Assembly (NCBI GenBank): GCA_028716305.1
Contig: JAQUQA010000001.1
Location: 1-34,342, forward strand
Direction: 5' to 3'
Origin: Candidatus Omnitrophota bacterium
GTDB taxonomy: Bacteria > Omnitrophota > Gorgyraeia > Gygaellales > Profunditerraquicolaceae
DNA length: 34,342 bases
The position numbers and the translations under genes are program-made. The first letter of the stretch is position 1; each line of letters begins with the position of its first letter. The notes below the pieces were generated by a model. The model did no database searches and had not been told where the DNA came from. It was given only the letters and a program-made list of their open reading frames with translations. Below, one piece after another: positions 10,987-34,342 of the stretch.

Positions 10987-10997
10987 ATACGCTCCTT

Positions 10998-12131: not shown

Positions 12132-12154
12132 CTTATGCCCTCATTTCCGTTCAT

Positions 12155-12751
12155 TTACTTAGTACATTCAATAATCAGATGATTATAGGGTATATTAAGC
12201 ATGTCATCGCGCAATTCCGTCTTAACGCCAGAGAAAACCTTTGATGCAAGATTTACGTATTCTTCCCGGTTCCTGACAAATTTACCGCGGTCCTTTGAAA
12301 GAATAAAACGTATTAACCGGTGCTGATTTTTAGTGTAACATCCGTCAATAGTTAACATCCTCCCGCCTTTTTTTAAGCCCGCAAAGGCAAGTTTGAATAA
12401 ATCTACCGCTTCCCGATCATTTAGATGATGCATTACCCCATTGGCCATAATTAAGTCGAATAAGGGCAAGGTTTCAATTATATTCATGTCAATATTCGAA
12501 CAAAAGAAATTACCGACTTTTGAATAATTTTCCTTAGCTGATTTAATATACTGTGCGTTTATATCAAAACCCGTATAAATAACTCCCGTTAAGAATTTCA
12601 AAATGTCAGCTGGCCCGCAGCCAACATCCAATATCTTATCGCCTTCCCGGGGCCTTAAGTAATTAGAAACAAATAACGCATGTGCCTTTCCGCCCCCGAC
12701 AATATTATAAAATAACCTGTAAAACAGCGGGGAATCCAATAAATACCTCAT
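12155..12751 (-). CDS. Class I SAM-dependent methyltransferase
   Basis: 198 aa. Motif I is ILDVGCGPADIL. The blocks FDLIMANGVMHHL and LKKGGRMLTIDG are also present. There is an ATGA overlap with the upstream membrane-protein gene. Confidence 0.85.
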   Translation of the reverse strand: MRYLLDSPLFYRLFYNIVGGGKAHALFVSNYLRPREGDKILDVGCGPADILKFLTGVIYTGFDINAQYIKSAKENYSKVGNFFCSNIDMNIIETLPLFDLIMANGVMHHLNDREAVDLFKLAFAGLKKGGRMLTIDGCYTKNQHRLIRFILSKDRGKFVRNREEYVNLASKVFSGVKTELRDDMLNIPYNHLIIECTK

Positions 12752-14277
12752 TTTGTTATTCCTTTGAGCAAACGACTTTCGGAAATTAATTTGTAGTTAA
12801 TTATAAAAACGTTATTAATAGGCTGAGTCATACTTATATTATTAATTTTCCGATATTCCACTATTTGCGGTATGGCAAATGCTAACGTATCAGCGAATTT
12901 TTTAGGAGATTCGCTTGCCAGATATACTTCAATATTTTTATTTTCAGTGGCTAAGAAAACCATTCCCTTGATACCTTCGTAATGAAACATATTGGCACCG
13001 TAATATGTCTCAAAGAGATTGGATTGGTTCCCGAATAAACTATGTGGAATGTTTTTCGCTAAACTATTAACATCTACAATGACAACTTCTTTATTTTTTA
13101 TAGTCTCTCTATTTTCTTTGATTACCCCGAAGATTGCGGCGTTTATTCTGCAAGACACTACTTGAGCCCAGGAATTTCCCTGGGAAACTAAAAGACATAG
13201 AAAAATAATACATATAGATGGAACCAGCCATTTGTTTCGCATCTTTTCAAAAATATTAACCAGTATGATTGATACACCGATACTTGGCATGATTAGATAT
13301 CTGCTGGCTATACCAAAGTTTTTATTCATAAGAAACGGCAAAATAAAAATAATGAATAGAATTAAAGCATAAAGGTTGCTCTTATTTCTTTTTACTGCCC
13401 CCGGGTAACTTACCATCATACGTATAATAGTAAACAAGACAAAAACGTCAATAAAAATGATGGGGATCAACCATGAGGGGGATATTGTAAAAAATTTATA
13501 AATGCCATATATCATGCTTCTAGCTAAATACCTGCCGAAATAATGATTGAATACATCAATCAATGGCCTGATGGGCAATATCGCTAAATCTAGGTTATAG
13601 CCCGACATCCTCAATTGACTGGAGCCAAAGGAATTAGTGAAACGGTAAAACGTATATAAAATAACAGGGATCAAGTAATAAAAAGAATACCTGGTTTTAT
13701 TTCTCTCATAAAATATGCAATAAAAGAACGCGGCAACTGGCAGAAAAAAACCGGCTTCATACCAAAATATACCGATTGTATACCCAAATATAGCTGAAAA
13801 TAAAAATAATTTACGCTGGTTCTTGAGAAAATAAATAAACGCTATCAAGGATAAGATATAAATACTTACTACGATATTAATATTTAGAAAAATCAAAGTG
13901 TGGTAAATTTCCAATTTATTTGGCAGAAGGATGTAAAATAACGAGGCGAAAAAAGCGCTCATTTCATTTCCAAGTAGCAATAAAAATAACCAATATATGC
14001 AAATGAGTAGCAAAGTACTCGAAATCACTAACGAGATGAATCCAAGAGCGACATTTTCACCGATCAATTTTCCCTGAAGCATAAAAAAAGAATATATGAT
14101 TGGGCGGTCAGGAACCTTAAACATTATTTTAGGTATTTGCTCAATCTCGACATTTTTTGACTGAGCCAAATAAAAATAATCATCGGAAGAAAAAGAGGCT
14201 CTCTCTAAAGGCAGAAAATGAGCGACCATATTCAGCAGAATCAGCAGGCTGACAAAGAACAGCTGTTTTTTATTCAT
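12748..14277 (-). CDS. Unassigned ~12-TM membrane protein with a soluble C-terminal domain; GT-C-like; paralogue B of 7644..9203
   Basis: 509 aa with the same layout as 7644..9203. TM1 is followed by a loop with SSDDYFYL. Shared blocks include FFMLQGKLIGEN, LEIYHTLIFLNIN, FWYEAGFF, HYFGRYLARSMIYG and VSQGNSWAQVVSCRIN. There is an ATGA overlap with the upstream GT2. Confidence 0.6.
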   Translation of the reverse strand: MNKKQLFFVSLLILLNMVAHFLPLERASFSSDDYFYLAQSKNVEIEQIPKIMFKVPDRPIIYSFFMLQGKLIGENVALGFISLVISSTLLLICIYWLFLLLLGNEMSAFFASLFYILLPNKLEIYHTLIFLNINIVVSIYILSLIAFIYFLKNQRKLFLFSAIFGYTIGIFWYEAGFFLPVAAFFYCIFYERNKTRYSFYYLIPVILYTFYRFTNSFGSSQLRMSGYNLDLAILPIRPLIDVFNHYFGRYLARSMIYGIYKFFTISPSWLIPIIFIDVFVLFTIIRMMVSYPGAVKRNKSNLYALILFIIFILPFLMNKNFGIASRYLIMPSIGVSIILVNIFEKMRNKWLVPSICIIFLCLLVSQGNSWAQVVSCRINAAIFGVIKENRETIKNKEVVIVDVNSLAKNIPHSLFGNQSNLFETYYGANMFHYEGIKGMVFLATENKNIEVYLASESPKKFADTLAFAIPQIVEYRKINNISMTQPINNVFIINYKLISESRLLKGITK

Positions 14278-14960
14278 AGCCTTAACCTCAAAAGGAAAAG
14301 TTGCTTAAAATTGGCCCAGATTGTCGCCGGATTATTTACTTTTGACCGACCGCAGACCCTGGGCTTCATCTCAATCGGGATACTGGTGATCTTATATCCG
14401 CGCTTTTTGGTCTTGATAATCAGCTCCATCAACACTGTCCACGGCCGGCCACCCGGGGAAAGCAGCTCGATTTTATCGAGCAATCGGCGCCTGAACATCA
14501 ACACTCCCTGAAATTTAGGCATCGGCCCAAAAAGCAGAAAGAATAAGGCCTTCTCCACCCGCGAAAGGGCCCGGGAAAGCAGAGAATCGTTCCTTTTCGG
14601 CAGGTAACCCAGGACCATATCGTGCTCTTGGGCTAAAGGCAGGAACTTATCAAGCAGATCCGCGGAAAACTGCCCGTCCGCCGAATAAAAAGTAAGCAGG
14701 TCCTTGGTCGCCCTGGCAAAGGCGGTACGGTAACCCGTTCCCAGTCCGCAATTATTGCCGTGGTGTATGACCGAAACCCGCTCCAGATCGTGACTCAGGC
14801 GATCCGCGATTTTTCCGGTTTTATCCGTGCTCCCGTCATCAATAACCACCAGCTCAAAATCCCCGCCCTGTCTGGAAAGGGCCTTCCAGGCCTGCCTCGT
14901 CACCTGCTCCAGGGTGGCCTCTTCATTAAAAGCTAAAATAAAAAGACTGATACTTTGCAT
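14274..14960 (-). CDS. GT2 glycosyltransferase, short soluble DPM1/polyprenyl-phosphate-hexose-synthase-like
   Basis: 228 aa. Motifs: ISLFILAFNEEATL, ELVVIDDGSTDKTGKIA, NCGLGTGYRTAF and FYSADGQF (DxD-like region). There is no C-terminal TM segment. Confidence 0.8.
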   Translation of the reverse strand: MQSISLFILAFNEEATLEQVTRQAWKALSRQGGDFELVVIDDGSTDKTGKIADRLSHDLERVSVIHHGNNCGLGTGYRTAFARATKDLLTFYSADGQFSADLLDKFLPLAQEHDMVLGYLPKRNDSLLSRALSRVEKALFFLLFGPMPKFQGVLMFRRRLLDKIELLSPGGRPWTVLMELIIKTKKRGYKITSIPIEMKPRVCGRSKVNNPATIWANFKQLFLLRLRL

Positions 14961-14965
14961 GCCGT

Positions 14966-15880
14966 CTATGGGTACAGATGGTAAAAATTAAAGGTTTCTC
15001 TTACCCGGAAACCCGCTTTTTCGTAAAATCTTTTTAACCCCGGGTGCTCGGACTCAAAATTAAGGATGATCCCCTTATTTTCAGATTGTAATCTTTTATG
15101 CGCCTCTTTGATCAGGCTCATTCCAATACCGTGCTTGCGCTCACCCTTTTTAACCACGATCATATCAACAAAACCATATCTTTCTCCAAGGAAATCCCTT
15201 TGGTCATAAGCGATAAAGCCGGCGATCCTCCCCTTCCGGCAGGCAACCAGGCAGGTATCCACCCGGCCGGATAGATCATTCATCGCCCATTGATAGTAAA
15301 GCCGCTTGACCTTATTTTTATCCAGGCGAGATTCTCTTAAAAGCCGGTTCTTATATCCGCTTGCCATGATCGCACAGATATCCTTAAATTCATTTTTTTT
15401 AGGCTCACGGATGAGCATGCCCTTGGGTTCGAAAGATATTTTTTCTTTAAAAGAAAGCCGCGCGTTAAGGGTCCGCGAGATCAAACGGGCCTTATTTTTT
15501 TTTAGCGCAAAGATAAGCGGCCGGCCGCCCACCGGGTCCCTGAAGAAGATTATCTTTACTCCGGCCGATCTGCAACGCCTGAGTAGGTCTTTGATCAGGT
15601 TATCGTAAAGCGAGGAACGCTTTAGGGTATTTTTTCGGGTCGCGATAAAAAGCATCCTGGCGGCCTTTACCCCCAGGAGCCGGCTGTCCCAACCAAGCAG
15701 CTGATATGCCAAAACCCCGGATAAGGGCTTTTTGCCTTGTCCGGGAAAGATAACGTATTCTTGCCCGCTTAAGGGAGATACCTTTCCCCCAAAGTAATTC
15801 TTTAAGGCAAGAGCTTCCTGGGATTCCCGCAAGAATACCCGCACGGCGCTTTCAGTTAATTTTCCTTTTGCTTCAGGCAT
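14966..15880 (-). CDS. Two-domain GNAT N-acetyltransferase, WecD-like (amino-sugar N-acyltransferase type)
   Basis: The C-terminal GNAT motif A is VVKKGERKHGIGMSLIKEA, followed by FYEKAGFRV. An upstream LLGWDSRLLG segment resembles the L.WDS.FFG start of WecD-type enzymes. The ORF is open to 15937. I prefer the ATG at 15880, which gives an ATGCCTGA 8-nt overlap with the SDR stop. Confidence 0.7.
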   Translation of the reverse strand: MPEAKGKLTESAVRVFLRESQEALALKNYFGGKVSPLSGQEYVIFPGQGKKPLSGVLAYQLLGWDSRLLGVKAARMLFIATRKNTLKRSSLYDNLIKDLLRRCRSAGVKIIFFRDPVGGRPLIFALKKNKARLISRTLNARLSFKEKISFEPKGMLIREPKKNEFKDICAIMASGYKNRLLRESRLDKNKVKRLYYQWAMNDLSGRVDTCLVACRKGRIAGFIAYDQRDFLGERYGFVDMIVVKKGERKHGIGMSLIKEAHKRLQSENKGIILNFESEHPGLKRFYEKAGFRVRETFNFYHLYP

Positions 15881-16853
15881 TCGCGGATTCCTTGTTTTTC
15901 CTGAACCATTCGATGGTCTTTTCAATGCCTTCTTCAATCCCTATCTTCGCCTTGAAATCAAGTATCTTCTCGGCTTTAGAGACATCGGGAAGCCTCCTGG
16001 ATATATCTTCGTAGCCGCTGCCGTAAATCTCCTCCGGCTGGATATGCACGATCTCGGATTTCGAACCGGTAACTTTTTTAATGATCTTTGCCAGTTCCAG
16101 AATAGTAATTTCCTTGGAATCTCCGATATTAAAAATCTGTCCTTCCGCTTCTTTTAAGACCGCGCATTTAACCAATCCCTTGATTACGTCTTCGACATAG
16201 GTAAAACACCTGGTCTGTTTGCCGTCACCGATAACCGTGATCTGCTTATTGGCCAATGCCTGGACAATAAAACGCGACATTACCCTGCCGCTGCCCTCGA
16301 TATCAAGCTTTGGCCCATAGGCGTTAAAAAAACGAACGATACTCATGGGAAGCCCCTGGCGGTGATACCCGATCAGCATATATTCCCCCAGGGCCTTGGT
16401 CGAGGAATAAACCCAGCGGTCTACGCTAGTCGGCCCCAGTAATCTGTCGTCGTCTTCTTTAAAGGGCACATTCGGGCTTTTACCATAGATCTCGGAAGTC
16501 GAGGTAAAAATGACCTTTTTCTTGTATTTAAAGGCCAGGGAAGCCACATTTTTTGTTCCGTCGACATTTATGCTGATGACCTTGAGAATGTCCCCGATAA
16601 TGTTCTCTACACCTACTGCCGCGGCCAAGTGATACACCAGGTCGCACTTTTTTATGAGAATCTCCAGCGCCGCCTCTTCCAGGATCGAACTTTCAAAAAA
16701 ATTAAAGTTTTTATGACTTTCGAATTCCCCGATATTATTCTTGTTGCCCCTGAGCATAATATCAAGCCCATAGACCTCATTTCCTTCTTTAAGCAGCTTT
16801 TCCGCAAGATGCGCGCCGATAAAACCCGCGACCCCCGTGATCAATATCCTCAT
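15873..16853 (-). CDS. Extended SDR, NAD-dependent epimerase/dehydratase family; ArnA C-terminal (UDP-uronate 4-oxidase/decarboxylase)-like
   Basis: 326 aa. MRILITGVAGFIGAHL carries the GxxGxxG motif. FTSTSEIYG, RWVYSSTKALGEY (YxxxK), GDGKQTRCFTYVEDV and GYEDISRRLPD parallel ArnA segments PSTSEVYG, RWIYSVSKQL, GGKQKRCFT and GYQDVEHRKP as I remember them. Confidence 0.8.
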   Translation of the reverse strand: MRILITGVAGFIGAHLAEKLLKEGNEVYGLDIMLRGNKNNIGEFESHKNFNFFESSILEEAALEILIKKCDLVYHLAAAVGVENIIGDILKVISINVDGTKNVASLAFKYKKKVIFTSTSEIYGKSPNVPFKEDDDRLLGPTSVDRWVYSSTKALGEYMLIGYHRQGLPMSIVRFFNAYGPKLDIEGSGRVMSRFIVQALANKQITVIGDGKQTRCFTYVEDVIKGLVKCAVLKEAEGQIFNIGDSKEITILELAKIIKKVTGSKSEIVHIQPEEIYGSGYEDISRRLPDVSKAEKILDFKAKIGIEEGIEKTIEWFRKNKESANA

Positions 16854-22233: not shown

Positions 22234-23013
22234 TTAACTTTGCCAGCGGTGCAGCACGACAAATGTCTCTTTTATCCGGAACCCTTTTTTGATATAGAAA
22301 TTTAAGGCTCCAAGATTACGAAATTGCGTACCAACCAGCAGCCCGGCCCGCTTTCTTGCGGCAGTACGCACGGCTGCTTCAATCAGGGCCGCTCCCGCCC
22401 CTTTTTCTTGAAAATCAGGGAGCACGGAAAGAAAGCATATTTCTAAATATCTCCGCAGATAAAGTTTTGATTTTTTTAATAAAAGCGCCCCGATAATTCT
22501 ATCTTTATGCTTAGCCAGAAATATGGCATTATCGCCTTTGGGGACAAAATTTTTAAAAAGATTTATCCATACCCCCCTAGCTTTATTTTTAGGGATATGC
22601 GCGTCTTGATGGAACCGGGTAAAAGAAAAAGTACTCCCCAGCTCATTATAAGGTATACCGCGGGTGGTGCCGGATCCCATCTTTTTAACCTCGCAGATGC
22701 TCGCCCGCTTTTTAGAGGCTGCCAAATGACAGCTTTCCATTTCAAGGATCACTCCAGTATCGATATAATCAAATCCGCATTTAATCAACAGATTAAGAAA
22801 TGTTGATTCTTCAGTTGAGGGGATCTTGGCAGTTATAAAAGAATCTGGCGGGAGGCCCTTTGCCAAGAATTCCCCTAAACCCTGAAAGTGGCTGCCGATT
22901 TTAGAATTCCTCCAGTCAAATAAATATGATACGACCCCGAAATAATCACTATCCCACGGTAAAAAAGTGAATTTGAATAAACAGTCGTTATGTCTTAAGA
23001 TTAAGTCTTTCAT
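22234..23013 (-). CDS. Two-domain GNAT N-acetyltransferase (WecD/PseH-like)
   Basis: 259 aa. The N-terminal FLPWDSDYFGV matches the WecD-type start. GNAT motif A is LPDFQEKGAGAALIEAA, followed by FYIKKGFRI. The single ATG gives a 26-nt overlap with the pseG-like 3' end. Confidence 0.75.
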   Translation of the reverse strand: MKDLILRHNDCLFKFTFLPWDSDYFGVVSYLFDWRNSKIGSHFQGLGEFLAKGLPPDSFITAKIPSTEESTFLNLLIKCGFDYIDTGVILEMESCHLAASKKRASICEVKKMGSGTTRGIPYNELGSTFSFTRFHQDAHIPKNKARGVWINLFKNFVPKGDNAIFLAKHKDRIIGALLLKKSKLYLRRYLEICFLSVLPDFQEKGAGAALIEAAVRTAARKRAGLLVGTQFRNLGALNFYIKKGFRIKETFVVLHRWQS

Positions 23014-23995
23014 TTATAAGATTCGGGATCTCGTCGCAGCGTAAAGCGAACTTTAACGGATGAATATTGCTGGAAAACAAGAATTGCTTCAGTTTGTTTT
23101 CGTCAATGCTCCTGCCCCCTAGATAGACAATGGCGTTCATCTTTTTAAACCACTTGCATCTGCGTTTTTGGTGTCCGTAAGTAGAAACTACCGCCGCCGG
23201 CAAATTCATCGCCATGGCCTCAAACAGTGAAAGCCCGCCCGCGCCGACAAAGGCATCCGCCCATAAATAATGCTTTTTCATCTCTAAAACGTTTTGATAG
23301 ACCGAAATACGGTTGATATTCTTTCGGCGTAAGAAATCGAGAAGTTTTTTCCTGCATTTATCAGTATAACCGGCACCGAGGATAACCCGGATCCGCAACG
23401 ATCCGGCCAGGCGTTCAAATAGTTCTACCGTTCTAAAGGTAAAATCCGATTTGTCGAAGCCACCAAAAAATACCAGTATATTCCTAAGGCATCGCGCCGG
23501 CTTAAATTTTCCGTTTAAAATCGCTGCTCGGAGCATATCCTTTTTTAAAACCACATATTCCGGGCCAAGTAAAAATTTCGTTTTGGGAAATTTTTCAGGA
23601 AGATACAGGCGATGGCTCTCCACGTCCCAATTTATTACAAGATCAAGATTATCCGGAATCCTCCCCCAGAAATCAATACAACCTTTTACCTGCGCTTGCA
23701 CCTTTTTCAAATAATCAACCGGCCCATTTGTAACCTCAAAGAAAAAAGCATTAATAGCCTCCCGGTTAATGATCTGATTGATACGATCTACCTCTTGCCT
23801 TCGATCAAACCGCGGTGAAATAAAAAAACTATCCTTTATTTTATATTGATCCAGTATGCTTTGCGTCTGAGGGGTTTTCTTACAGATAAAATATTTCTTC
23901 CACCCCCGGAAATATTGCGAAAGATAAAGCAAAGAGTAAAGATCACCGGTACCGCTTTTTTCTCCTGCGTCTGCTCTAAATAGAATTTTATTCAT
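22988..23995 (-). CDS. pseG: PseG-like protein (UDP-sugar hydrolase, GT28-C fold) with a substituted catalytic His position
   Basis: 335 aa. The N-terminus [17 protein letters not shown] parallels the PseG sequence [30 protein letters not shown] and [25 protein letters not shown] match the PseG/MurG-C pattern. Confidence 0.65.
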   Translation of the reverse strand: [335 protein letters not shown]

Positions 23996-25064
23996 GAAAA
24001 ATCGCCCTCCAGGTCACAGGCGAACCTTTTTTAATGTTAACAGGGCTAAAGACCCTGAATTCCTTAAAAAATTCCATATATTTGGGATCTATTCCTCTTG
24101 GCTTTTTGCCTGGCCGCAATATCGCTAAATCGCCGCATTTGATCCTGCTATCCTTAAGAATATCATTTTTCGCATAAATCGCCATATAGCAGAAATCGCG
24201 CAAATAACGCTCGTATTCAAAAACTTTTTTCTCGGTGCTCCCGTAGAGCACCCGGTCGATCGGCGCCCCGCGGTTTTTTTTCTTTTCCGCCGTTCTAATC
24301 TCCCTGACCATTTGCTTAAGCTCCTCCGGTTCCAGCGCGAAGAAATGATCCGGCCCGGGCATTTGTTTGTCCAGGGTGATATGCTTTTCGATTATCCCCG
24401 CCCCCAGATACACCGCCTGGACCGCCGCCCGGGAAACCAGGGCGGTATGATCGGAAAAACCTGCCCCGCAGCCGGGAAAGGCCGATTTTAGCGTTTTGAT
24501 GGCTCCCAGGTTGCATTGCTGCGGCGCTGCCGGGTATTTTAAGGTGCACTGTAAAAGCCAGATTTTATCGTGAAATTTATTGATACAGGCAACTGCCTCT
24601 TCGATCTCCGAAAGGGTTGCCGCGCCGGTTGAAACGATCAAAGGCAGCTTGAAGCGCGCGCAATGTTCGAGAAGCGGAATATTGGTTAAGGCGGTAGAGG
24701 CGATTTTGATTGCCCTCATTCCACGGGAGATCAAAAAATCCACCCCCTGCCGGTCAAAAACCGAAGCCAGAAAATCTATCCGCTTTTTTCGGCAATAATC
24801 GACAACCGGCCTTATCCAGGAAGGCGGCATCTCGAATGATTCCACCGCGGAATAAATATCGTAACTGTATTTCTTGTTTTTGTCCTGCCAATCCAGCTTT
24901 CCGGCGGAACGCGGATACAACCCGGCAGCCCGGAAATACTGGAACTTAACGCAGTCACATCCGGCTGCCGCGGAAACGTCGATCAGGCGCAAACAGTTAT
25001 CCAGAGAACCGTTATGATTTATCCCGACCTCGGCAATAATATAGGTTTTATTCTTATGAATCAT
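23988..25064 (-). CDS. pseI: Nonulosonic-acid synthase (NeuB/PseI/LegI family) with a C-terminal SAF domain
   Basis: 358 aa. The canonical N-terminus is YIIAEVGINHNGSLDNCLRLIDVSAAAGCDCVKFQ. KIAS and GFSDHT blocks are present, and the SAF-like tail is GDLAILRPGK...IKKGSPVTW. The pseI label rests only on the adjacent pseG-like and GNAT genes. Confidence 0.85.
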   Translation of the reverse strand: MIHKNKTYIIAEVGINHNGSLDNCLRLIDVSAAAGCDCVKFQYFRAAGLYPRSAGKLDWQDKNKKYSYDIYSAVESFEMPPSWIRPVVDYCRKKRIDFLASVFDRQGVDFLISRGMRAIKIASTALTNIPLLEHCARFKLPLIVSTGAATLSEIEEAVACINKFHDKIWLLQCTLKYPAAPQQCNLGAIKTLKSAFPGCGAGFSDHTALVSRAAVQAVYLGAGIIEKHITLDKQMPGPDHFFALEPEELKQMVREIRTAEKKKNRGAPIDRVLYGSTEKKVFEYERYLRDFCYMAIYAKNDILKDSRIKCGDLAILRPGKKPRGIDPKYMEFFKEFRVFSPVNIKKGSPVTWRAIFHE

Positions 25065-26981: not shown

Positions 26982-27431
26982 TTACTCCAAAGGGTATCTC
27001 AACTGCCACTTGCCTGATTCTTTTTTCCAAATCTCCGGGTTGCGGTGCTTATCCACGATTTCATTGAATTCCTTTTCGTTAAGATCCAGATACTCCAGTA
27101 CCTCTTTCAGGAATAGACTAGGGTATTCATGGTCATATTTTCTTGCCAGCTTAAGCCCTTCTTCCCGGGTCAACTGCCGGTTCTGGATCATCCGGCTGGC
27201 ATCTCTTACCGCCCTGCCAAAACCGAATTTTATGTATTGCAGATAATAATAGGCGTTATCAACCTTATCATCCAGGCTGTCAAAATCGGTAAAGGTGCCT
27301 TCGGTCCGACCTGCCGGACAGGTGTGAAAATCAAATTTATCCTTGATATAAAGGTAATTCTCATAACTGCTCCATTTAAAAAAATAACTGAAATACATGG
27401 CCTTTACCCCAGCCCGGCGGATCTTTTCCAT
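26982..27431 (-). CDS. C-terminal fragment of an N-acetyl-sugar amidotransferase (WbuX/WbpG/PseA family); part of a frame-interrupted gene
   Basis: The 149-aa ORF contains FDSLDDK, YLQYIKFGFGRAVRDASRMIQNRQLTREEG and FNEIVDKHRNPEIW, typical of the family C-terminus. Its reading frame stays open upstream as far as 27575 and so overlaps the end of the N-terminal fragment. Confidence 0.8.
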   Translation of the reverse strand: MEKIRRAGVKAMYFSYFFKWSSYENYLYIKDKFDFHTCPAGRTEGTFTDFDSLDDKVDNAYYYLQYIKFGFGRAVRDASRMIQNRQLTREEGLKLARKYDHEYPSLFLKEVLEYLDLNEKEFNEIVDKHRNPEIWKKESGKWQLRYPLE

Positions 27432-27517
27432 ATCCGGATAAATGTAGGGGTTTAAGTCGGATATTCCGATTTCTTCATCTACCCAGTTGCGGGGGTCATC
27501 TCCGATCTGGTGCTCGA

Positions 27518-28147
27518 CTACTTCGGTAAAATCACGGATTTTTTTGCCTCCTGGCTTAAGACCTTTCCGCCGTATTCACTCTCTCCGTGCTCGGCGTAAA
27601 AAACCAGCGGAATATTAAAATCCACCGCGGTCTTTACCGGAATGACGTTGATCCCGGCATCCCAGGCAACTTTTTGATTTCCCCGCTCGATAAAGAACCG
27701 GCGCGCGAGCCTGCGATGCACCTTCTGGTTTGGCCGGAAAAAGATGTGGTCAAACCCCAGCCGGATCAAAGCCTCGCGGTTATGATTACCCACTTCATTG
27801 GGGATCTGCGGAGAAAATGTCACCAAAAGCGGGTTCATCCCAAATTCGAATTTCAGCTTGTAGGCTACCGCGCTGCTGTCTTTTCCCCCGCTCCAGGGAA
27901 CAAGACAATCCCAATACCCGTTTTTGGAACGAAAAGGTTCGATCAGGCGCTGAAACTCTTCTTTTCTGGCCTGCCAGTCGAGATTAGCCCATTTTTCCTC
28001 GGCGTTCCTACAGGCATTACAGACACCGGATTCATCAAAGGTGATCCTGGGCCGGGAATTCGGCATCAGACACTTTTTGCAGTACGCAATTCTTCTTGCC
28101 GCTTCTGAAGAGTGTTTTATTTCGGCATTCCCCCTGGAAATATCCAT
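27518..28147 (-). CDS. N-terminal fragment of an N-acetyl-sugar amidotransferase (WbuX/WbpG/PseA family); part of a frame-interrupted gene
   Basis: 209 aa. The Zn ribbon is CKKCLMPNSRPRITFDESGVCNACRN. The PP-loop is VPWSGGKDSSAVAYKL. YAEHGESEYGG is also present. It ends 6 codons after an A7 run. Confidence 0.8.
   Translation of the reverse strand: MDISRGNAEIKHSSEAARRIAYCKKCLMPNSRPRITFDESGVCNACRNAEEKWANLDWQARKEEFQRLIEPFRSKNGYWDCLVPWSGGKDSSAVAYKLKFEFGMNPLLVTFSPQIPNEVGNHNREALIRLGFDHIFFRPNQKVHRRLARRFFIERGNQKVAWDAGINVIPVKTAVDFNIPLVFYAEHGESEYGGKVLSQEAKKSVILPK
27539..27545 (-). repeat. A7 homopolymer on the coding strand (T7 on the + strand) at the frame break of the amidotransferase gene
   Basis: The + strand reads ggaTTTTTTTgcc. 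The coding strand reads GCA AAA AAA TCC. One additional A would join the two fragments into a 388-codon ORF. Confidence 0.9.
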
Positions 28148-28152
28148 CTTTT

Positions 28153-28899
28153 CTATCCCCTTACTTCAACTCCCGATTTTTTTAAATACTGCTTCGCGCT
28201 TTTGATGCTATTTTCGGTGAAATGGTAGATATTTGTGGTGGCCCCGGCCTGCACCTTGCCGATTAAAAAACCATCGACAAAATCCTGCCATTTGCCCGCG
28301 CCACCGCAGGCGATCACCGGAATATCCACCGCATCAGCGACTAAGCGGTTAAGCCGGTTATCGTACCCTTCAAGAGAGCCGTCTTTTTCGATCGAAGTGA
28401 TCATGATCTCTCCGGCCCCCAGCTCTTGGGCCTTTTTTGCCCAGCTAACCGGATCCAGCCCCGTAGGCCGGGTGCCGAATTCGCTATAAACTTCATAATT
28501 GCCGCTGCCGTTCTCCCTGGTATCGATCGATACCAATACGCACTGTGAACCGAACAGCCTGGCCGCTTCGCTGATAAACTCCGGACGGTTTAACGCCTGG
28601 TAATTTATCGCCACCTTATCCGCCCCCAGGCAAAGCAGCTTTCGGAAATCCTCGATATCCCTTACCCCTCCCCCTGCCGTCAACGGGACAAAACAGCGTT
28701 CGGCAAAATCGCTGACCACGGAAAAGAAATTCTCCTTTTTTCCGGCGCCCGGCCGGGTGATATCCAGCACAACGATCTCGTCAACCGACCAGGCATCGAC
28801 AAAATTAAGCGTATAGCGGTAATCCGGCTGAAAGACCTTTGTCCGGAACAATACCCCATCGTTAAACGTTAATACGGTAATTACCCGTTTTCTCAGCAT
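28153..28899 (-). CDS. hisF: HisF-like cyclase subunit (WbuZ type, glycan amidation-associated)
   Basis: 248 aa. The KRVITVLTFNDGVLFRTKVFQ start is typical of the WbuZ subgroup. GADKVAIN, EIMITSIEKDGSLEGYD and PVIACGGAGK blocks of the HisA/HisF barrel are present. Confidence 0.88.
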   Translation of the reverse strand: MLRKRVITVLTFNDGVLFRTKVFQPDYRYTLNFVDAWSVDEIVVLDITRPGAGKKENFFSVVSDFAERCFVPLTAGGGVRDIEDFRKLLCLGADKVAINYQALNRPEFISEAARLFGSQCVLVSIDTRENGSGNYEVYSEFGTRPTGLDPVSWAKKAQELGAGEIMITSIEKDGSLEGYDNRLNRLVADAVDIPVIACGGAGKWQDFVDGFLIGKVQAGATTNIYHFTENSIKSAKQYLKKSGVEVRG

Positions 28900-28904
28900 G
28901 GTTT

Positions 28905-29513
28905 TTAAGATTTTTTTAAAAAGTTATCCAGTAATTTCAAACCCGCGAGCTGGCTTTTCTCCGGATGAAATTGCGTCGCGTAAATGTTATCCTGCTGGAT
29001 CACGGCGCTGAAGCGGACACCGTATTCCGACTCTCCAAAGACAATACCCGAGTCATCCGGCCGCAGATAGAAACTGTGCACGTAATAAAAAAGGTCTTCT
29101 TTTTCGACCCCATCAAAGAGAATACTGCTTTTTTTCTGAAAAAGATCGTTCCACCCCACGTGCGGGACAGGCAAACCCTGCTCGGGTAACCTGACTACCG
29201 AGGCGGGGATCCAGCCCAGGCCCTTATGCCGGCCAAACTCAAAACTTTCCCCGGCGAATAGCTGCGCCCCCAGGCAAATCCCCAGGATCGGCTTCTTTTC
29301 CCCGATCACCATCCGGCTAAGTACTTCTCTCAGGCCAAAGGCGGCCAGGTTATTCATTCCGTCCCCAAAAGCGCCTACACCCGGAAGGATCAGCTTATCC
29401 GCCTGCTCAAGCGCCGCATGGTCCCGGGTCACCATCGCCTCAAAACCCAGGCGCTTTACCGCCGCGTAAACCGACTTGAGATTACCTAACCCATAATCAA
29501 CTATGGCAATCAT
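28905..29513 (-). CDS. hisH: HisH-like class I glutamine amidotransferase subunit (WbuY type)
   Basis: The ATG at 29513 gives MIAIVDYGLGNLKSV, the canonical HisH start, 5 nt after the upstream stop. The longer ORF to 29558 overlaps the upstream gene. The nucleophile is in ILGICLGAQL and the His/Glu pair in QFHPEKS. Confidence 0.88.
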   Translation of the reverse strand: MIAIVDYGLGNLKSVYAAVKRLGFEAMVTRDHAALEQADKLILPGVGAFGDGMNNLAAFGLREVLSRMVIGEKKPILGICLGAQLFAGESFEFGRHKGLGWIPASVVRLPEQGLPVPHVGWNDLFQKKSSILFDGVEKEDLFYYVHSFYLRPDDSGIVFGESEYGVRFSAVIQQDNIYATQFHPEKSQLAGLKLLDNFLKKS

Positions 29514-29518
29514 CGCTA

Positions 29519-31195
29519 TCAACCTTCGCCTATCTTTACGCCAAAGGCGCTTACCCAATCCTGAAAAGCCATATTCTTGTATTCGCTGCGGTCATATTTG
29601 CCGTTTTTCCCCCAGCCAAACCAGTGGTTTATCGGGGCGCTGAAACCCCGCTTATCCACCCTTTCGGCGATCTCTTTGGGAATGAATTTCTTTGCCACTT
29701 TTTTCAGGATCCACTTGGTTACGCCGTTTTTAATTTTGTATTTTGACGGCATACTGAAGGCAAACTGAATCAGGCGATAATCCAAAAAAGGAGAACGGTT
29801 TTCCACGGCAAAAGCCATGTTTATGCGGTCGGAAAACTGCAAGAGTTCCTGCATGGTAGTGTAAAAATCGGTTACTCCCATGGCGTGGATATGGTCGTGC
29901 CCCATCTTTGAAAAATAGAATCCGATATTTTCTTCCAGATACCTGCTTACTTCCTTGTCATAACGGTTCTCGCAGCGGTTGACGATCCGGGTATATCTTT
30001 CCACCGGTGACCCGTAGTAACGATCAACCAGGTAAGAGTACCTCTCCAGCGCTTTTAAATTCTTGATCTGTTCGTCATGGTGCAGAAGGTGATAACGGTG
30101 ATACCCGGAGAAGATCTCATCTGCGCCGTCACCGGAAAGGACCACCTTGATATCCTTGATCGCCCTCTCTAAAAGCATCCAAAGGCTGAAACTCGTCCAG
30201 GTACATGGGGTATCAAGATGATAGATGATCTTTCGGCGGGTGCGCTCAAAGTCCGCCTGGGTCGGACGCACGATGATCAGGCGTTTATTAATTTTTTTGG
30301 CCACTAACTTTGCGTAATCCAGTTCATCATAATCGTTCTTGATATCAAAATGGCAGGTATAGAGATAATCAGGCTTGGCGATACAGGCTACCAGGGCGCT
30401 ATCCACCCCTCCACTGACAAAAGTCCCGAAACGATGCACGCAATTCTTCGTCCTTAAGGTAATAGCGTCTACCAACAGGTCGGAAAGCCTGGACTCTATC
30501 TTCTTGAGGTTATCCGGTAGATAAATCAGATTGTCCCAGACCTTCCAGTAGGCGTGCTTGGTCAAGCGGCCCTGGCGATCGATTTTCAGGTACTCTCCCG
30601 GTAAAAGGCAATAAATATCCTTAAAAAGCGTCTCTTCCCCGGTATTGAATTCATAGGCATGATAAGATATGCAATCTTTGTTTAATGCCGGAGTGATTAC
30701 CTCCAGGAGGGCCTTGATCTCGCTGGCAAAGGCAAAGAACTTGTCGTTATTTACGTAATACAGTGGTTTTTCCCCTGCCTTGTCGCGGACGATATAAAGT
30801 TCTTCTTTCAGGGAATCATGCAGGGCAAAGGCAAACATACCATTGTAATCGGAAAAAGACTTAACCCCCTGATGCAGAAAATGGCTTAATACCGTTTCCG
30901 CGTCTGAAGAGCTGCTAAAGCGGTATTTTCCCCGGTAAAGCCCGCGGATCTGTTCGTGGTTATAGACTTCTCCGTTGTAAACTATAGCCGCGGTCTTATC
31001 TTTGTTCTCATAAGGGATCAGATGCTTCTCCTTATCGATAATGCTTAGGCGCACTGAGCCCAAAGCAAGGTCGCCCCGCAGATAAACCCCGGACTGGTCC
31101 GGCCCACGGTGCCCGATGCGTTCCAGCATCTTCTTTACCGTTTTTTCCGGCAAAACGGCGCCCTTTTTACGCAAGTAACCGGCTATTCCGCACAT
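29519..31195 (-). CDS. asnB: Asparagine synthase (glutamine-hydrolysing) family amidotransferase, second copy
   Basis: 558 aa. MCGIAGY gives the Cys2 nucleophile. RGPD, VRLSIID and NGEVYNH blocks are present, with the PP-loop VSGGVDSA. Confidence 0.88.
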   Translation of the reverse strand: MCGIAGYLRKKGAVLPEKTVKKMLERIGHRGPDQSGVYLRGDLALGSVRLSIIDKEKHLIPYENKDKTAAIVYNGEVYNHEQIRGLYRGKYRFSSSSDAETVLSHFLHQGVKSFSDYNGMFAFALHDSLKEELYIVRDKAGEKPLYYVNNDKFFAFASEIKALLEVITPALNKDCISYHAYEFNTGEETLFKDIYCLLPGEYLKIDRQGRLTKHAYWKVWDNLIYLPDNLKKIESRLSDLLVDAITLRTKNCVHRFGTFVSGGVDSALVACIAKPDYLYTCHFDIKNDYDELDYAKLVAKKINKRLIIVRPTQADFERTRRKIIYHLDTPCTWTSFSLWMLLERAIKDIKVVLSGDGADEIFSGYHRYHLLHHDEQIKNLKALERYSYLVDRYYGSPVERYTRIVNRCENRYDKEVSRYLEENIGFYFSKMGHDHIHAMGVTDFYTTMQELLQFSDRINMAFAVENRSPFLDYRLIQFAFSMPSKYKIKNGVTKWILKKVAKKFIPKEIAERVDKRGFSAPINHWFGWGKNGKYDRSEYKNMAFQDWVSAFGVKIGEG

Positions 31196-31199
31196 ATGA

Positions 31200-32525
31200 T
31201 TATTTTGCCAGGTTTAGCGTGCCGTCACCGACACGATGATACTTTATATTTTTTCCGAAATCCAGGCCATCCCAGATTCCGTAATTATCGATGACCAGCT
31301 TAGTATGTTTTTTAATTCTTTTTAACTCATTTTGCCTTAGTGTCTTATACTGGTTATGGTCACAGGCAACAACAATTACCTCAGCGTCGAAGACACTACC
31401 GGGAAAATCACTCACCTTTGCCCCTTTGACGTATTTATTTAATTCCGCGGAGGAACAAAACGGATCGTGTAAAATCACCTTTAATGAATTCTTCAAAAGG
31501 TATTCTGCCATGGTCACTGACGGAGAAAGTGTCAGGTCCTTCTGGTTCCCCTTATAGGTAACACCCAGTATGGCCACACTCTTATATGAGCTGCGGATGA
31601 GATACTCCGCATAGGTCAGCACCGAAGATATGTTGATATCCTGGAATTCCTTCAACAAGGTCAGGCTCTCCTGATTAGCGCTGCCTTCGATCAGGTAATC
31701 GATGGCAAAGGTCATTTTCGCCCCTCCCGTCCCGATATTCAACTTGCAATCATCAAAGTTCATGTTTCTGAAGATTGAACGGGAGATCTTCCCCAGGTCA
31801 ACCCCGGGATAGCCGATGGCCAGCTGCCGCATAAAATCAATGGCCATCGCCTGGATCGCGGCAATGGAATTTACATAGATCTCGGCTTCCTTGACGCTGT
31901 TTAGGGCCACCACCGGCATTTCGAAATATGCGGAGAGTTTTCCAACCGCAGCCAGCCCTCTGGCATCGCAAGATGAAATGACCAGGCGGTCCTTTCCGGC
32001 CATAAAAGACTCGAAGCTCCAATCCGTCCTGAACATCGTGCCCAGATAATAATCCCTGCCCGGAAGCAGGTTTGCTTTTTTGAGCTTTTCAACAAAATTA
32101 TTCTCGATATGCCCGGGGATAAAAGCCGATTCAAAGACGACCAAGGGGCGCGCCCCGCCTTTCTTAAGGTATTTAGCGAACAGATCGGCAAGCCTTGCCG
32201 CGATATTTTCCGATCCGATATTCTTGTGGCTCTCGGGGATGGTGATAATGTGCAAGAGGGTTCCAGCAAACATCTCTTTGGGGGTTTTCGCGATCTTAAC
32301 TCTTTCATAATCCGGCTGGGGCAGATAACCCGATATTGACCAGACCGCCCGCTGGTTACGGTCCGGGTAATTCCTGTTCCGGAAGGCCTCTAGTTGGGGG
32401 GTTTTTAAATCAAAGGCATTTATTTTGAATCCGCTATTCTGCAATTTGCAGATAGTCGTGTAACCCAGATAACCTAAACCCCAAACAGAAACCGTCTTAT
32501 TCAAAAATATATTCTCCTGGGCCAT
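31200..32525 (-). CDS. UDP-glucose/GDP-mannose dehydrogenase-family protein, divergent; catalytic Cys/Lys/Asn positions apparently not conserved
   Basis: 441 aa. The N-terminal Rossmann motif is VSVWGLGYLGYTTICKL followed by NAFD. The C-terminal nucleotide-sugar domain signature is VAILGVTYKGNQKDLTLSP...LKVILHDPF. The central helix and active-site loop read AEIYVNSIAAIQAMAIDFMRQL and GTGGAKMTFAIDYL. The family pattern as I recall it is AE..K..EN..RD.NIA..NE. and G.GGHCI.VDPYYL. Confidence 0.7.
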   Translation of the reverse strand: MAQENIFLNKTVSVWGLGYLGYTTICKLQNSGFKINAFDLKTPQLEAFRNRNYPDRNQRAVWSISGYLPQPDYERVKIAKTPKEMFAGTLLHIITIPESHKNIGSENIAARLADLFAKYLKKGGARPLVVFESAFIPGHIENNFVEKLKKANLLPGRDYYLGTMFRTDWSFESFMAGKDRLVISSCDARGLAAVGKLSAYFEMPVVALNSVKEAEIYVNSIAAIQAMAIDFMRQLAIGYPGVDLGKISRSIFRNMNFDDCKLNIGTGGAKMTFAIDYLIEGSANQESLTLLKEFQDINISSVLTYAEYLIRSSYKSVAILGVTYKGNQKDLTLSPSVTMAEYLLKNSLKVILHDPFCSSAELNKYVKGAKVSDFPGSVFDAEVIVVACDHNQYKTLRQNELKRIKKHTKLVIDNYGIWDGLDFGKNIKYHRVGDGTLNLAK

Positions 32526-32526
32526 C

Positions 32527-33666
32527 TTAGCCTCCGCCTTTCAATACCTGATTGACATTATCGATCACATACTCCACGTCCTGGTCCGACATGCCGGGAA
32601 ATAAAGGAATTGATACCGCCTCCCCGTATGCCTTATCCGCGACAGGAAACTTCTTTTTTGAGATCTTCTTGTAAAATGGATGCCGGTGCAAGGGGATAAA
32701 ATGCACGCTGCAACCGATATTTCTCTCTTTAAGCTTACCGACAAATTCATCGCGGGGGATAATTTCTTTATCGATCCTGATCAGAAAAAGATGATAATTA
32801 TGGAAATTTTCCTGCGAGTCTTCGGTGAACCTTATCCTTTTATCCAGGCCGCGCCTGTACATCCCGGCGATCTCTCTGCGGCGCAGGTTCATTTCTTCGA
32901 GTTTAGCCAGCTGCACCAGGCCGATTGCCGCGTGGATGCTGTCCATATTATATTTATAACCGAGTTCCTCGATTTCATAATACCAGCTGCCTTTTTGGGT
33001 ATAGCGGTCAAAGGCGCGCTTATTTATCCCGAAATAGCTCAGCTTTCTGATTTTTTCGATCGTTTTCCTGTTCCGGGAAACAACCATCCCCCCTTCGCCG
33101 CAAGCCAGATTTTTCGTGGCATAGAAACTAAAAGCGGTCAGATCGCCGAATCCTCCGATCTTTTTCCCTTTATAGGCCGTGCCGCAGGCGTGTGCCGCGT
33201 CTTCAATGACGGCTAACTTGTGTTTTTTCGCGATCCGGCAGATTTCATTCATGGCGCAAGGGTAACCGGCAAAATGCACCGGGATGATCGCTTTGGTCTT
33301 TTTGCCGATTGACTTTTCCAGGGCCCTGACATCGATATTCAAGGAAGATTCTTCGACATCGCAAAGCACGGGCCTTGCCCCGGTCCAGAGCACCACGTGC
33401 GCGGTGGCGACAAATGTCCAGGTCGGGACGACCACTTCATCATGCGGGCCGATCCCCTGGCTTAAAAGCCCGAGGAACAATCCGGCGGTGCAGGAATTCA
33501 GGGCCGCGGCATGGAAGCCTTCTCCCAGGTATTCGCAAAATCTTTCTTCAAATTCCGTTACTTTCGGGCCGGTAGTCAAATGGCCCGACCTAATCACTTC
33601 CGCGGCCGCCTCGATCTCTGCCTGGGAAAAACACGGCCTGGCAAATGGTAGAAAATCCTTACGCAT
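32527..33666 (-). CDS. DegT/DnrJ/EryC1 PLP aminotransferase, ArnB-like
   Basis: 379 aa. The blocks FLPFARP, SGHLTTGPK..EFEERFC, IPVHFAG, VIEDAAHA, SFYATKN (PLP Lys), GYKYNMDSIHAAIGLVQLAKLEEMNLRRREIA, NYHLFLIRID and LKERNIG resemble my memory of E. coli ArnB. There is an ATGCGTAA 8-nt overlap with the upstream gene. Confidence 0.88.
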   Translation of the reverse strand: MRKDFLPFARPCFSQAEIEAAAEVIRSGHLTTGPKVTEFEERFCEYLGEGFHAAALNSCTAGLFLGLLSQGIGPHDEVVVPTWTFVATAHVVLWTGARPVLCDVEESSLNIDVRALEKSIGKKTKAIIPVHFAGYPCAMNEICRIAKKHKLAVIEDAAHACGTAYKGKKIGGFGDLTAFSFYATKNLACGEGGMVVSRNRKTIEKIRKLSYFGINKRAFDRYTQKGSWYYEIEELGYKYNMDSIHAAIGLVQLAKLEEMNLRRREIAGMYRRGLDKRIRFTEDSQENFHNYHLFLIRIDKEIIPRDEFVGKLKERNIGCSVHFIPLHRHPFYKKISKKKFPVADKAYGEAVSIPLFPGMSDQDVEYVIDNVNQVLKGGG

Positions 33667-34342
33667 TTTTTATAACCTCCCCTGTCCCTTGCAATCTTTC
33701 CTGAGGATACCAGCTGTCGCAGTTCCTGCAGGTCTGGTCGTTAAATATAAGGCTCTGCTGCTGCCGGCGCAGCTTCCGGTATGCCGGGCTGTTCCAGATA
33801 TCTTTTATCGATGAACCATTAAGATCTCCCATCGGCTCACCGCTCCAATCATGGTTACAGCGGCCGATCTTTCCGTCGCAAAATATCAGCAGCTCATAAA
33901 AAGGCATCACGCAGGGCACCCGGCCGCTTCTTTTTTTTGCCAGCGAACCGAACTTACCGTCCCGGGAATGTTCCTGGTATATCCTGACCAAGTCTACTTT
34001 ATCTCTCCAGATACGTTTGAATTCATCCGCGTTCTCATCGGGAGTATCGGCCGTCTTGACCATGGAAACCTGGGTCTTGACCCGCCCGGCATTCAGCTCC
34101 AGGAATCGCAGGATCTTCGACTCGACGTCAGGGTATTTCGCAGGTATCCTGGTCCGCTCAAAGACCGCCGGCGTATCGATGCTGAAAGAAATAAAGGTGT
34201 GCGAATCGATGATCGAGATTGACTTCTTGTCATCCAGAAGAGTGGCATTGGTAGCCAGCTGGACTTCCTTGAATTTACCTTTGACCAATTCGCAGATATC
34301 CCCAAACCGCGGATGCAGGAGACTCTCCCCCCTGCGGTGCAA
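33659..34342 (-). CDS. Radical SAM/SPASM-domain protein, C-terminal ~227 aa; the 5' end is outside the window
   Basis: The frame is open to the window edge. GESLLHPRF and QLATNATLLD are typical of the radical-SAM barrel. The Cys-rich SPASM-like tail is CVMPFYELLIFCDGKIGRCNHD...CRNCDSWY. The CxxxCxxC cluster would lie upstream of the window. Confidence 0.75.
   Translation of the reverse strand: MHRRGESLLHPRFGDICELVKGKFKEVQLATNATLLDDKKSISIIDSHTFISFSIDTPAVFERTRIPAKYPDVESKILRFLELNAGRVKTQVSMVKTADTPDENADEFKRIWRDKVDLVRIYQEHSRDGKFGSLAKKRSGRVPCVMPFYELLIFCDGKIGRCNHDWSGEPMGDLNGSSIKDIWNSPAYRKLRRQQQSLIFNDQTCRNCDSWYPQERLQGTGEVIKNA

Follow-up and report, generated by a model that had tools for sequence, protein, structure and literature searches.

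A thiol-less UDP-glucose dehydrogenase-like family paired with an AsnB-type amidotransferase in putative nonulosonic acid loci of Omnitrophota and other phyla

Introduction

What does a protein do when it has the fold of a textbook covalent enzyme, the catalytic residues of that enzyme are replaced, and its gene lies beside that of an amidotransferase? This question is raised by a gene at 31200..32525 on the minus strand of the window, by which we mean the whole 34,342-nucleotide stretch of Candidatus Omnitrophota DNA analyzed here. The gene encodes a 441-amino acid protein with the UDP-glucose dehydrogenase (UGDH)/WecC fold, hereafter the UGDH-like protein, in which E98, R166, V218, A222, K270, and A274 occupy the catalytic positions. 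It belongs to an undescribed, widespread family, clade A, the members of which lack the catalytic thiol. As the best explanation, which we put forward tentatively, we propose that the UGDH-like protein is a neofunctionalized, WecC-proximal enzyme of the UGDH superfamily that has abandoned covalent thiol catalysis and forms a two-gene unit with AsnB in building a modified nonulosonic acid.

Results

The fold of the UGDH-like protein was examined by structure prediction. The AlphaFold2 model, for which 28 homologues served as input, had a predicted local distance difference test score (pLDDT) of 88.1 and a predicted template modeling score of 0.85, and contained a long central helix (residues 211-238). 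In a Foldseek search against the PDB, the best matches were the UDP-N-acetylmannosamine (UDP-ManNAc) dehydrogenase 4r16, BceC, and the human and nematode UGDH, with template modeling (TM) scores of 0.70-0.75 and identities of 15-20%; all 50 PDB matches listed by Foldseek were members of the UDP-glucose/GDP-mannose dehydrogenase superfamily. The model and the Foldseek matches revealed three domains: an N-terminal Rossmann domain, a central helical domain, and a C-terminal Rossmann-like nucleotide-sugar domain. Since the model was confident and the PDB matches reached these TM scores, we consider the predicted assignment to this superfamily to be secure, and the structural check suggested in the original prediction thus returned the UGDH/WecC fold. 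The profile check suggested there gave a single pass: only PF03720, the C-terminal UDP-binding domain, exceeded its Pfam cut-off (65 bits against 30), whereas PF03721, the N-terminal domain, remained below threshold (16.5 bits against 27), and the Pfam scan found no match to PF00984, the central domain. TIGR03026 aligned end to end with the protein; however, its score of 107.6 bits fell short of the cut-off of 189.8.

The cofactor-binding and sugar-binding motifs were described as intact in the original prediction, and they were found to be so. The Rossmann motif GLGYLG lies at residues 16-21 and is followed by D39 in AFD; G16, G18, G21, and D39 align with their counterparts in Escherichia coli Ugd and WecC and provide the GxGxxG motif and the acidic residue of the second beta-strand. 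We infer from this motif that the protein may bind nicotinamide adenine dinucleotide (NAD). The C-terminal nucleotide-sugar signature, ILGVTYKGNQKDLTLSP, was located at residues 319-335, and HDP at residues 353-355.

To map the catalytic site, we aligned 37 sequences with MAFFT L-INS-i: 15 from clade A, 4 intermediates, 15 from the Cys-bearing clade B, and 3 canonical anchors (P0045, E. coli Ugd [b2028], and E. coli WecC [b3787]). The thiol loop, contained in GTGGAKMTFAIDYL (residues 265-278), was ungapped in this anchored alignment. The catalytic Cys of the GG(x)C motif of thiol-dependent 6-dehydrogenases was replaced by K270, and the Asp four residues after it by A274, as originally claimed. 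In the central helix, AEIYVNSIAAIQAMAIDFMRQL (residues 214-235), the Lys was replaced by V218, the Asn by A222, and the "NE" pair by R233-Q234. The Thr of the (V/T)PT motif (VPT) was E98, the Glu of PE(F/R) was R166, and DDxR was replaced by K329-D330-L-T332. None of the Lys/Asn pair of the helix, the Asp at Cys+4, the Thr, or the Glu was retained, and the six canonical catalytic positions were all substituted in the UGDH-like protein. The claim that the Lys, Asn, and Asp positions of the central helix had been lost was accurate for the protein itself (V218, A222); however, it does not extend to the family, in which Asn222 was kept in 54 of 76 clade A members.

Pairwise and profile HMMER alignments based on Cap5O placed a 2-residue gap in this loop, which set the Cys opposite T272 and kept the Asp as D276. 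The anchored alignment overruled this register. The thiol loop reads GTGGYCIPLAxxY in clade B, GAGGYKxPxAxxN in distal clade A, and GTGGAKMTFAIDY in the UGDH-like protein, and the ungapped mapping of Cys to K270 is considered to be correct because GGYC-IP of clade B corresponds to GGYK-xP of distal clade A. These alignments support the view, already taken in the original prediction, that the UGDH-like protein is not a conventional thiol-dependent 6-dehydrogenase.

We then asked how far this remodeled site extends. A word-indexed search retrieved 44 homologues with identities of 34-61%, mostly from metagenome-assembled genomes of Candidatus Omnitrophota, and 1.84 billion representatives were searched exhaustively with a profile, which yielded a graded series of relatives, 135 representatives of which had E values of 1e-30 or below. 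Full-length sequences were aligned to the family profile (hidden Markov model), giving 76 clade A and 64 clade B members. Lys or Arg occupied the Cys position in clade A members from Omnitrophota, Nitrospinota, Desulfobacterota, Campylobacterota, Dependentiae, Planctomycetota, and one archaeon. Among the hosts of clade A and intermediate loci were Omnitrophota, Nitrospinaceae, Desulfovibrionaceae, Desulfobacterales, Dependentiae, Campylobacterales, Syntrophales, Ca. Scalindua, and a Hydrothermarchaeota archaeon.

The replacements followed a pattern. At position 270, where Cys was found in 64/64 clade B sequences, clade A had Lys or Arg at a ratio of approximately 1:1 and a few Gln (21 Lys and 17 Arg in the close subclade, 17 Lys and 16 Arg in the distal subclade). 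Position 218 was Lys in 63/64 clade B sequences, and Val, Ile, or Ala in the close and Glu in the distal subclade of clade A; conversely, position 98, Thr in 64/64 clade B sequences, was Glu in the close subclade and a small or neutral residue in the distal subclade. An acidic residue was present at position 98 in 35 clade A members, at position 218 in 25, and at both positions in none. Arg166 was found in 75/76 clade A members and also in clade B. Asn222 was present in 64/64 clade B sequences, and the UGDH-like protein was the sole member of clade A with Ala at this position. In the Rossmann motif, G16 and G18 were invariant in clade A, G21 was kept in 70/76, and D39 in 63/76; R166, D168, W169, E172, E215, Q234, N219, and H92 were invariant or nearly so. 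In a rough neighbor-joining tree without bootstrapping, clade A was monophyletic and was nested next to clade B and the intermediates, within the WecC-proximal part of the superfamily. On this sequence evidence, we regard clade A as a family rather than an isolated decayed copy.

The intermediates (P0097, P0121, and L017:9944-11290) retain Lys, Asn, and Thr, whereas the Cys is replaced by Asp or Asn (GGYDVP, GGYNLP). In those located next to AsnB (the L017 gene, from Syntrophales, and P0097), only the Cys was changed, to Asp; in L017, an AsnB of the cassette type lies directly downstream of the intermediate. Judged by their sequences, the intermediates are consistent with covalent catalysis having been lost step by step in the lineage associated with AsnB.

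The gene neighborhood was compared across 19 independent evaluable loci with clade A or intermediate genes, which were obtained by an exact-protein look-up and a scan of GTDB genomes and were re-annotated by searching them with the proteins of the window. In 19/19 loci, from at least seven phyla, an orthologue of AsnB (639-950 bits) was located immediately downstream of the UGDH-like gene, and DegT lay immediately upstream in 15/19. The homologue and neighborhood check and the claim that the DegT/AsnB placement is meaningful were both borne out by these 76 members and 19 loci. In the window, the AsnB-type glutamine-dependent amidotransferase (29519..31195, minus strand; 558 amino acids) starts 4 nt downstream of the UGDH-like gene, has an intact Cys2 and SGGVDS PP-loop, and scored 383 bits with TIGR01536. 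On the other side, 1 nt upstream, lies a pyridoxal phosphate-dependent aminotransferase similar to DegT, ArnB, and PseC (32527..33666, minus strand; 379 amino acids; 371 bits with the ArnB model and 364 bits with the PseC model, both below cut-off). The UGDH-like gene has a ribosome-binding site, GGAGG, 8 nt 5' of its ATG; this site overlaps the stop codon of DegT.

A radical S-adenosylmethionine (SAM) gene of approximately 290 codons adjoined DegT in at least 14 loci. In the window, this SPASM/twitch-type radical SAM enzyme (33659..34342, minus strand) is cut by the window end; the closest PDB match of a full-length orthologue (L001:5970-6860, approximately 290 amino acids) was BtrN (4m7t, 1.8e-10). 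By analogy, a BtrN-like enzyme next to DegT suggests a radical SAM alcohol dehydrogenase acting on a nucleotide sugar. In Nitrospinaceae, the order was DegT-radical SAM-UGDH-like-AsnB, and we consider UGDH-like-AsnB and radical SAM-DegT to be separate pairs because of this order. The UGDH-like-AsnB pair was also kept without a functional radical SAM/DegT pair in L002/L006, L017, and L027, in which DegT is absent or truncated.

A cytidylyltransferase gene (CTP_transf_3) directly preceded the block in six loci (L001, L003, L005, L012, L016, and L020); the window stops short of the place that it occupies in orthologous loci. In P0080 (L027:3614-5629 and L028:3626-5641), CTP_transf_3 and a thiol-less UGDH-like protein form a natural fusion of 671 amino acids, with AsnB directly downstream of it in an operon that contains NeuB and neither radical SAM nor DegT. 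NeuB and a PseG-like gene were found less than 10 kb away wherever the contig was long enough. Since NeuB, a nucleoside diphosphate (NDP)-sugar hydrolase, and a cytidylyltransferase are all represented, the locus is, as judged by gene content, a nonulosonic acid (pseudaminic/legionaminic acid-like) pathway. The amidation setting proposed in the original prediction therefore stands as far as the AsnB pairing is concerned; however, its surroundings, a nonulosonic acid locus with a BtrN-like radical SAM enzyme, are not simply those of a uronamide step. A canonical UGDH paralogue was not found within 10 kb of the UGDH-like gene in any locus examined, and, therefore, among the local gene products, only the UGDH-like protein is a candidate for supplying AsnB with a carboxylate.

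We considered whether AsnB is linked to the whole divergent branch. This was ruled out by four contexts of Cys-bearing clade B genes without AsnB. A clade B gene in L019 does lie in a nonulosonic acid locus, and AsnB is absent there also.

The whole window is a single minus-strand glycan locus. From upstream to downstream, the gene order is radical SAM, DegT, UGDH-like, AsnB, HisH/WbuY, HisF/WbuZ, WbuX, two methyltransferases, NeuB, a PseG-like gene, and GNAT. WbuY(HisH), WbuZ(HisF), and WbuX (26982..29558, minus strand) form an acetamidino-forming trio. Further downstream are the NeuB-family nonulosonate synthase (23988-25064, minus strand; PF03102, 263 bits), the PseG-like UDP-sugar hydrolase (22988-23995, minus strand; 88 bits, below cut-off), and a GNAT acyltransferase (22234-23013, minus strand). 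The gene of the WbuX-type N-acetyl-sugar amidotransferase (26982-28147, minus strand) is interrupted by one frameshift, located in an A7 run (27539-27545; T7 on the plus strand), and is thereby divided into two open reading frames; its orthologues are intact in L001 and L005 (378-383 amino acids). The frameshift may reflect an error in the assembly, mark a pseudogene, or belong to a phase-variable tract.

Several other features of the window were noted. A short-chain dehydrogenase/reductase (15873-16853, minus strand) was nearest to UDP-xylose synthase and the C-terminal decarboxylase of ArnA (205 bits, below cut-off). Enzymes of this type would require a UDP-uronic acid; however, a canonical UGDH is absent from the window. 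A WecE-type dTDP-4-amino-4,6-dideoxyhexose transaminase (within 9200-12131, minus strand) scored 573 bits, above cut-off, and lies beside a GT2 glycosyltransferase and a formyltransferase; this group is probably a separate N-formylated 4-amino-6-deoxy-sugar branch of the same locus. A second AsnB paralogue (46-1935, minus strand; 629 amino acids) scored 209 bits against the cassette AsnB, and comparable second copies are located just upstream of NeuB in L013 and L016. The GC content falls to 0.33-0.39 at approximately 8000-14300, against approximately 0.47 elsewhere, and two open reading frames of approximately 510 amino acids in this stretch (7644-9203 and 12748-14277) had no Pfam match.

Discussion

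The best match to the UGDH-like protein among characterized enzymes was the UDP-ManNAc dehydrogenase WecC/Cap5O (PDB 3ojl and 4r16; Cap5O profile E value 2e-21; TM score of 0.70-0.74 for 4r16, the top Foldseek match). Both have three domains, a Rossmann GxGY(I/L)G motif, and a C-terminal (Y/F)K...SP motif. However, at an identity of 15-20%, the UGDH-like protein differs from WecC/Cap5O in Cys to K270, Asp(+4) to Ala, Lys to Val, Asn to Ala, the Thr of VPT to Glu, the Glu of PER to Arg, and DDxR to KDLT. E. coli Ugd, BceC, and human UGDH similarly share the fold (TM score of 0.72-0.75) and the NAD-binding motif, whereas the thiohemiacetal/thioester chemistry of Ugd and UGDH is missing at the canonical position in the UGDH-like protein.

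The nearest relative is the uncharacterized clade B (120-235 bits), which is marked by GGYC-IP-L, VPT, AExxKxxEN, and APRRDWF. Clades A and B have in common RxDW in place of PE(F/R), NQL in place of NE(L/I), His92, and the loss of the Asp at Cys+4. Clade B differs from clade A in the retention of the Cys, Lys, Asn, and Thr counted above and in matching each of the three Pfam domains. In place of AsnB, AP_endonuc_2, PIG-L, and AMP-binding enzymes are encoded near clade B genes, and in P0174, an AMP-binding adenylating enzyme is fused to the clade B dehydrogenase. This linkage and fusion to carboxylate-adenylating enzymes suggests an ancestral theme of "acid, then amide". We also observed intein/Hint insertions directly following the N-terminal portion of the central domain in clade B members P0088, P0095, P0130, and P0153, with LAGLIDADG in P0088 and P0095; P0148 has a LAGLIDADG insertion, and no Hint or Intein_splicing match was detected in it.

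Two types of known pathways resemble parts of the cassette. In the BtrN/BtrS (butirosin) and KdnB/KdnA (Kdo8N) systems, an alcohol is converted to a carbonyl and then to an amine, and the radical SAM enzyme and DegT of the cassette suggest a like logic on a nucleotide sugar or ulosonic acid. The likeness is one of pathway logic; these systems have neither a UGDH-fold protein nor AsnB. Uronamide formation of the AsnB (WbpS-like) type in O-antigen and O-glycan loci likewise involves a PP-loop AsnB homologue encoded beside a UGDH-family gene. However, the uronate in the known cases comes from a canonical Cys dehydrogenase, whereas the partner here is thiol-less and the pair lies inside a nonulosonic acid cassette. 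One report mentions an asparagine synthetase-like enzyme in the Tannerella O-glycan locus (PMC6120980).

We propose the following scheme. The UGDH-like protein would bind a UDP-activated, or possibly CMP-activated, amino sugar with its terminal carbon facing NAD(P)+. K/R270 and R166, the cationic replacements of the Cys and Glu, would form an oxyanion/carboxylate pocket, and an acidic residue at position 98 (in the subclade of the window protein) or 218 (in the distal subclade) would act as the base. The hydroxymethyl group would be oxidized to a carboxylate through an aldehyde hydrate without a thioester, after which AsnB would adenylate the carboxylate and amidate it with glutamine-derived ammonia. 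The second pair, the BtrN-like radical SAM enzyme and DegT, would act on the same sugar and convert a secondary alcohol to an amine. The parts of this scheme that we infer are the binding of NAD, the identity of the substrate, its oxidation to the acid, and the hand-over to AsnB. By alignment, K/R270 and R166 presumably make up a cationic pocket at the site that accommodated C6 in the ancestral enzyme, and such a pocket would suit a carboxylate or gem-diolate. A Schiff base at K270 is disfavored because Arg is equally frequent at this position; the interchange of Lys and Arg favors an electrostatic, anion-binding role. Since AsnB requires a carboxylate and a canonical UGDH was not found within 10 kb, the simplest pathway is thiol-free generation, or at least binding, of a C6/terminal carboxylate by the UGDH-like protein, followed by its amidation by AsnB. 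The complementarity of positions 98 and 218 is suggestive of a relocated base.

A number of points weigh against this scheme. The complementarity of positions 98 and 218 was set aside because the split follows the two subclades and may be purely phylogenetic, and neither position is acidic in 16/76 clade A members. The Thr and the general-base Lys, which in canonical enzymes are required for the first hydride transfer as well, are both gone here; Asn222 has also been lost in the UGDH-like protein itself. To our knowledge, Cys-to-Ala mutants of streptococcal UGDH yield no acid, and a four-electron oxidation without a thiol is unprecedented in the UGDH fold. The active-site loop (residues 251-270) is the part of the model with the lowest confidence (pLDDT of approximately 68). 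The carboxylate used by AsnB could instead come from an N-acyl group or from C1 of the nonulosonate. Finally, neither clade A nor the five-gene block was found to be described in the literature on nonulosonic acids, radical SAM enzymes, asparagine synthetases, or Cys-less UGDH.

Other explanations were weighed against the same evidence. The UGDH-like protein may be a dead pseudoenzyme that binds a nucleotide sugar, probably UDP-uronate as the ancestral product, with NAD having a structural role only, and that presents the substrate to AsnB or stabilizes it. The replacement of all six catalytic residues, the suitability of K/R270 and R166 for carboxylate binding, the obligate adjacency to AsnB with likely translational coupling, and the recognition of PF03720 as the sole remaining Pfam domain agree with such a scaffold. 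However, a pure scaffold would not need the Rossmann GxGxxG motif, which is invariant across phyla, or D39, which is largely kept, and the former active site is more conserved (N219, E172, R166, D168, W169, and H92), not less. Clade A did not show the loosened conservation of cofactor motifs and of the old active site by which pseudoenzymes are recognized. A nearby canonical UGDH to supply the uronate is also missing, and AsnB-type uronamide-forming enzymes are not known to us to require a partner. We consider a dead scaffold to be unlikely, and neofunctionalization is favored over it because the replacements (K/R270, R166, N219, E172, and an acidic residue at 98 or 218) are conserved and the Rossmann motif is invariant. 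It is less probable still that the protein acts as a two-electron dehydrogenase and takes its substrate no further than the C6/terminal aldehyde, which DegT would transaminate to a terminal amine in the manner of NeoQ/NeoB or KdnB/KdnA. The lost Cys and the Glu of PE(F/R) serve the second half-reaction only, the Rossmann motif is retained, DegT lies immediately upstream in most loci, and aminoglycoside and Kdo8N pathways run from alcohol through aldehyde to amine with a DegT-family enzyme. Nevertheless, the UGDH-like/AsnB pair survives the absence or truncation of DegT, DegT goes with the radical SAM gene in Nitrospinaceae, Lys or Arg at position 270 suggests an anionic ligand, and AsnB would be left without a carboxylate.

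A remodeled yet conserved active site with an intact Rossmann motif may also serve other NAD chemistry, such as transient oxidation for C5 epimerization or elimination, NAD(P)H reduction of an intermediate made by AsnB or the radical SAM enzyme, or action at the level of the CMP-nonulosonate. The P0080 fusion to a CMP-sugar-type cytidylyltransferase and the six loci with CTP_transf_3 directly before the cassette are in line with the last of these, as is the nonulosonate tailoring at the CMP level reported in a preprint (10.64898/2026.04.20.719630). However, the evidence is not specific to any one of these reactions, a fusion indicates a shared pathway rather than consecutive steps, and the C-terminal domain binds an NDP, not a nucleoside monophosphate, in all known members; we regard this group of reactions as rather improbable. 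A conventional four-electron 6-dehydrogenase with Cys260 as the nucleophile is very improbable. Cys260, in FDDCKLNIG (residues 257-265), was the alternative active-site Cys named in the original prediction; it lies in the substrate loop 10 residues before position 270, where the geometry is poorly determined in the model, and it was present in 39/39 members of the Omnitrophota subclade. However, it was found in only 7/37 distal clade A members despite the same gene context, and the Cys-bearing clade B has Tyr or Phe at this position. Since it is invariant only in the Omnitrophota subclade, Cys260 was rejected as a family-wide nucleophile; no alignment placed it in the catalytic column, and the Lys/Asn/Asp/Thr/Glu network is missing too.

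The reading that we prefer, a neofunctionalized enzyme paired with AsnB, has a bolder variant, to which we assign a low probability. The UGDH-like protein would then be the first UGDH-fold enzyme to act on a CMP-nonulosonic acid or its immediate UDP-sugar precursor, with terminal oxidation performed by a thiol-free Arg/Lys oxyanion pocket and conversion to a carboxamide by AsnB. This variant is conceivable because of the fusion of P0080 to a cytidylyltransferase and the cationic replacements. A mass-spectrometric survey found CMP-ulosonic acids without an assignment in other environmental bacteria (10.64898/2026.04.20.719630), and, therefore, uncharacterized products of this kind exist in nature.

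Public pipelines name clade A proteins "UDP-glucose 6-dehydrogenase", "UDP-N-acetyl-D-mannosaminuronate dehydrogenase", or "nucleotide sugar dehydrogenase". A dehydrogenase name is not transferable because the catalytic columns are substituted, and these annotations are, on the alignment evidence, probably wrong. The conserved replacement of Cys by Lys/Arg and of Glu by Arg in a textbook covalent enzyme, maintained by selection across at least seven phyla, represents a natural experiment on rewiring or retiring a four-electron dehydrogenase. The five-gene block (cytidylyltransferase, BtrN-like radical SAM enzyme, DegT, UGDH-like protein, and AsnB) marks an uncharacterized nonulosonic acid branch in uncultured, mostly anaerobic bacteria, and is small enough for reconstitution. 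If the bolder variant is true, the UGDH-like protein, together with the BtrN-like radical SAM enzyme and DegT, would give rise to a new class of amino-nonulosaric acid amides, displayed on the cell surface by anaerobes including Omnitrophota.

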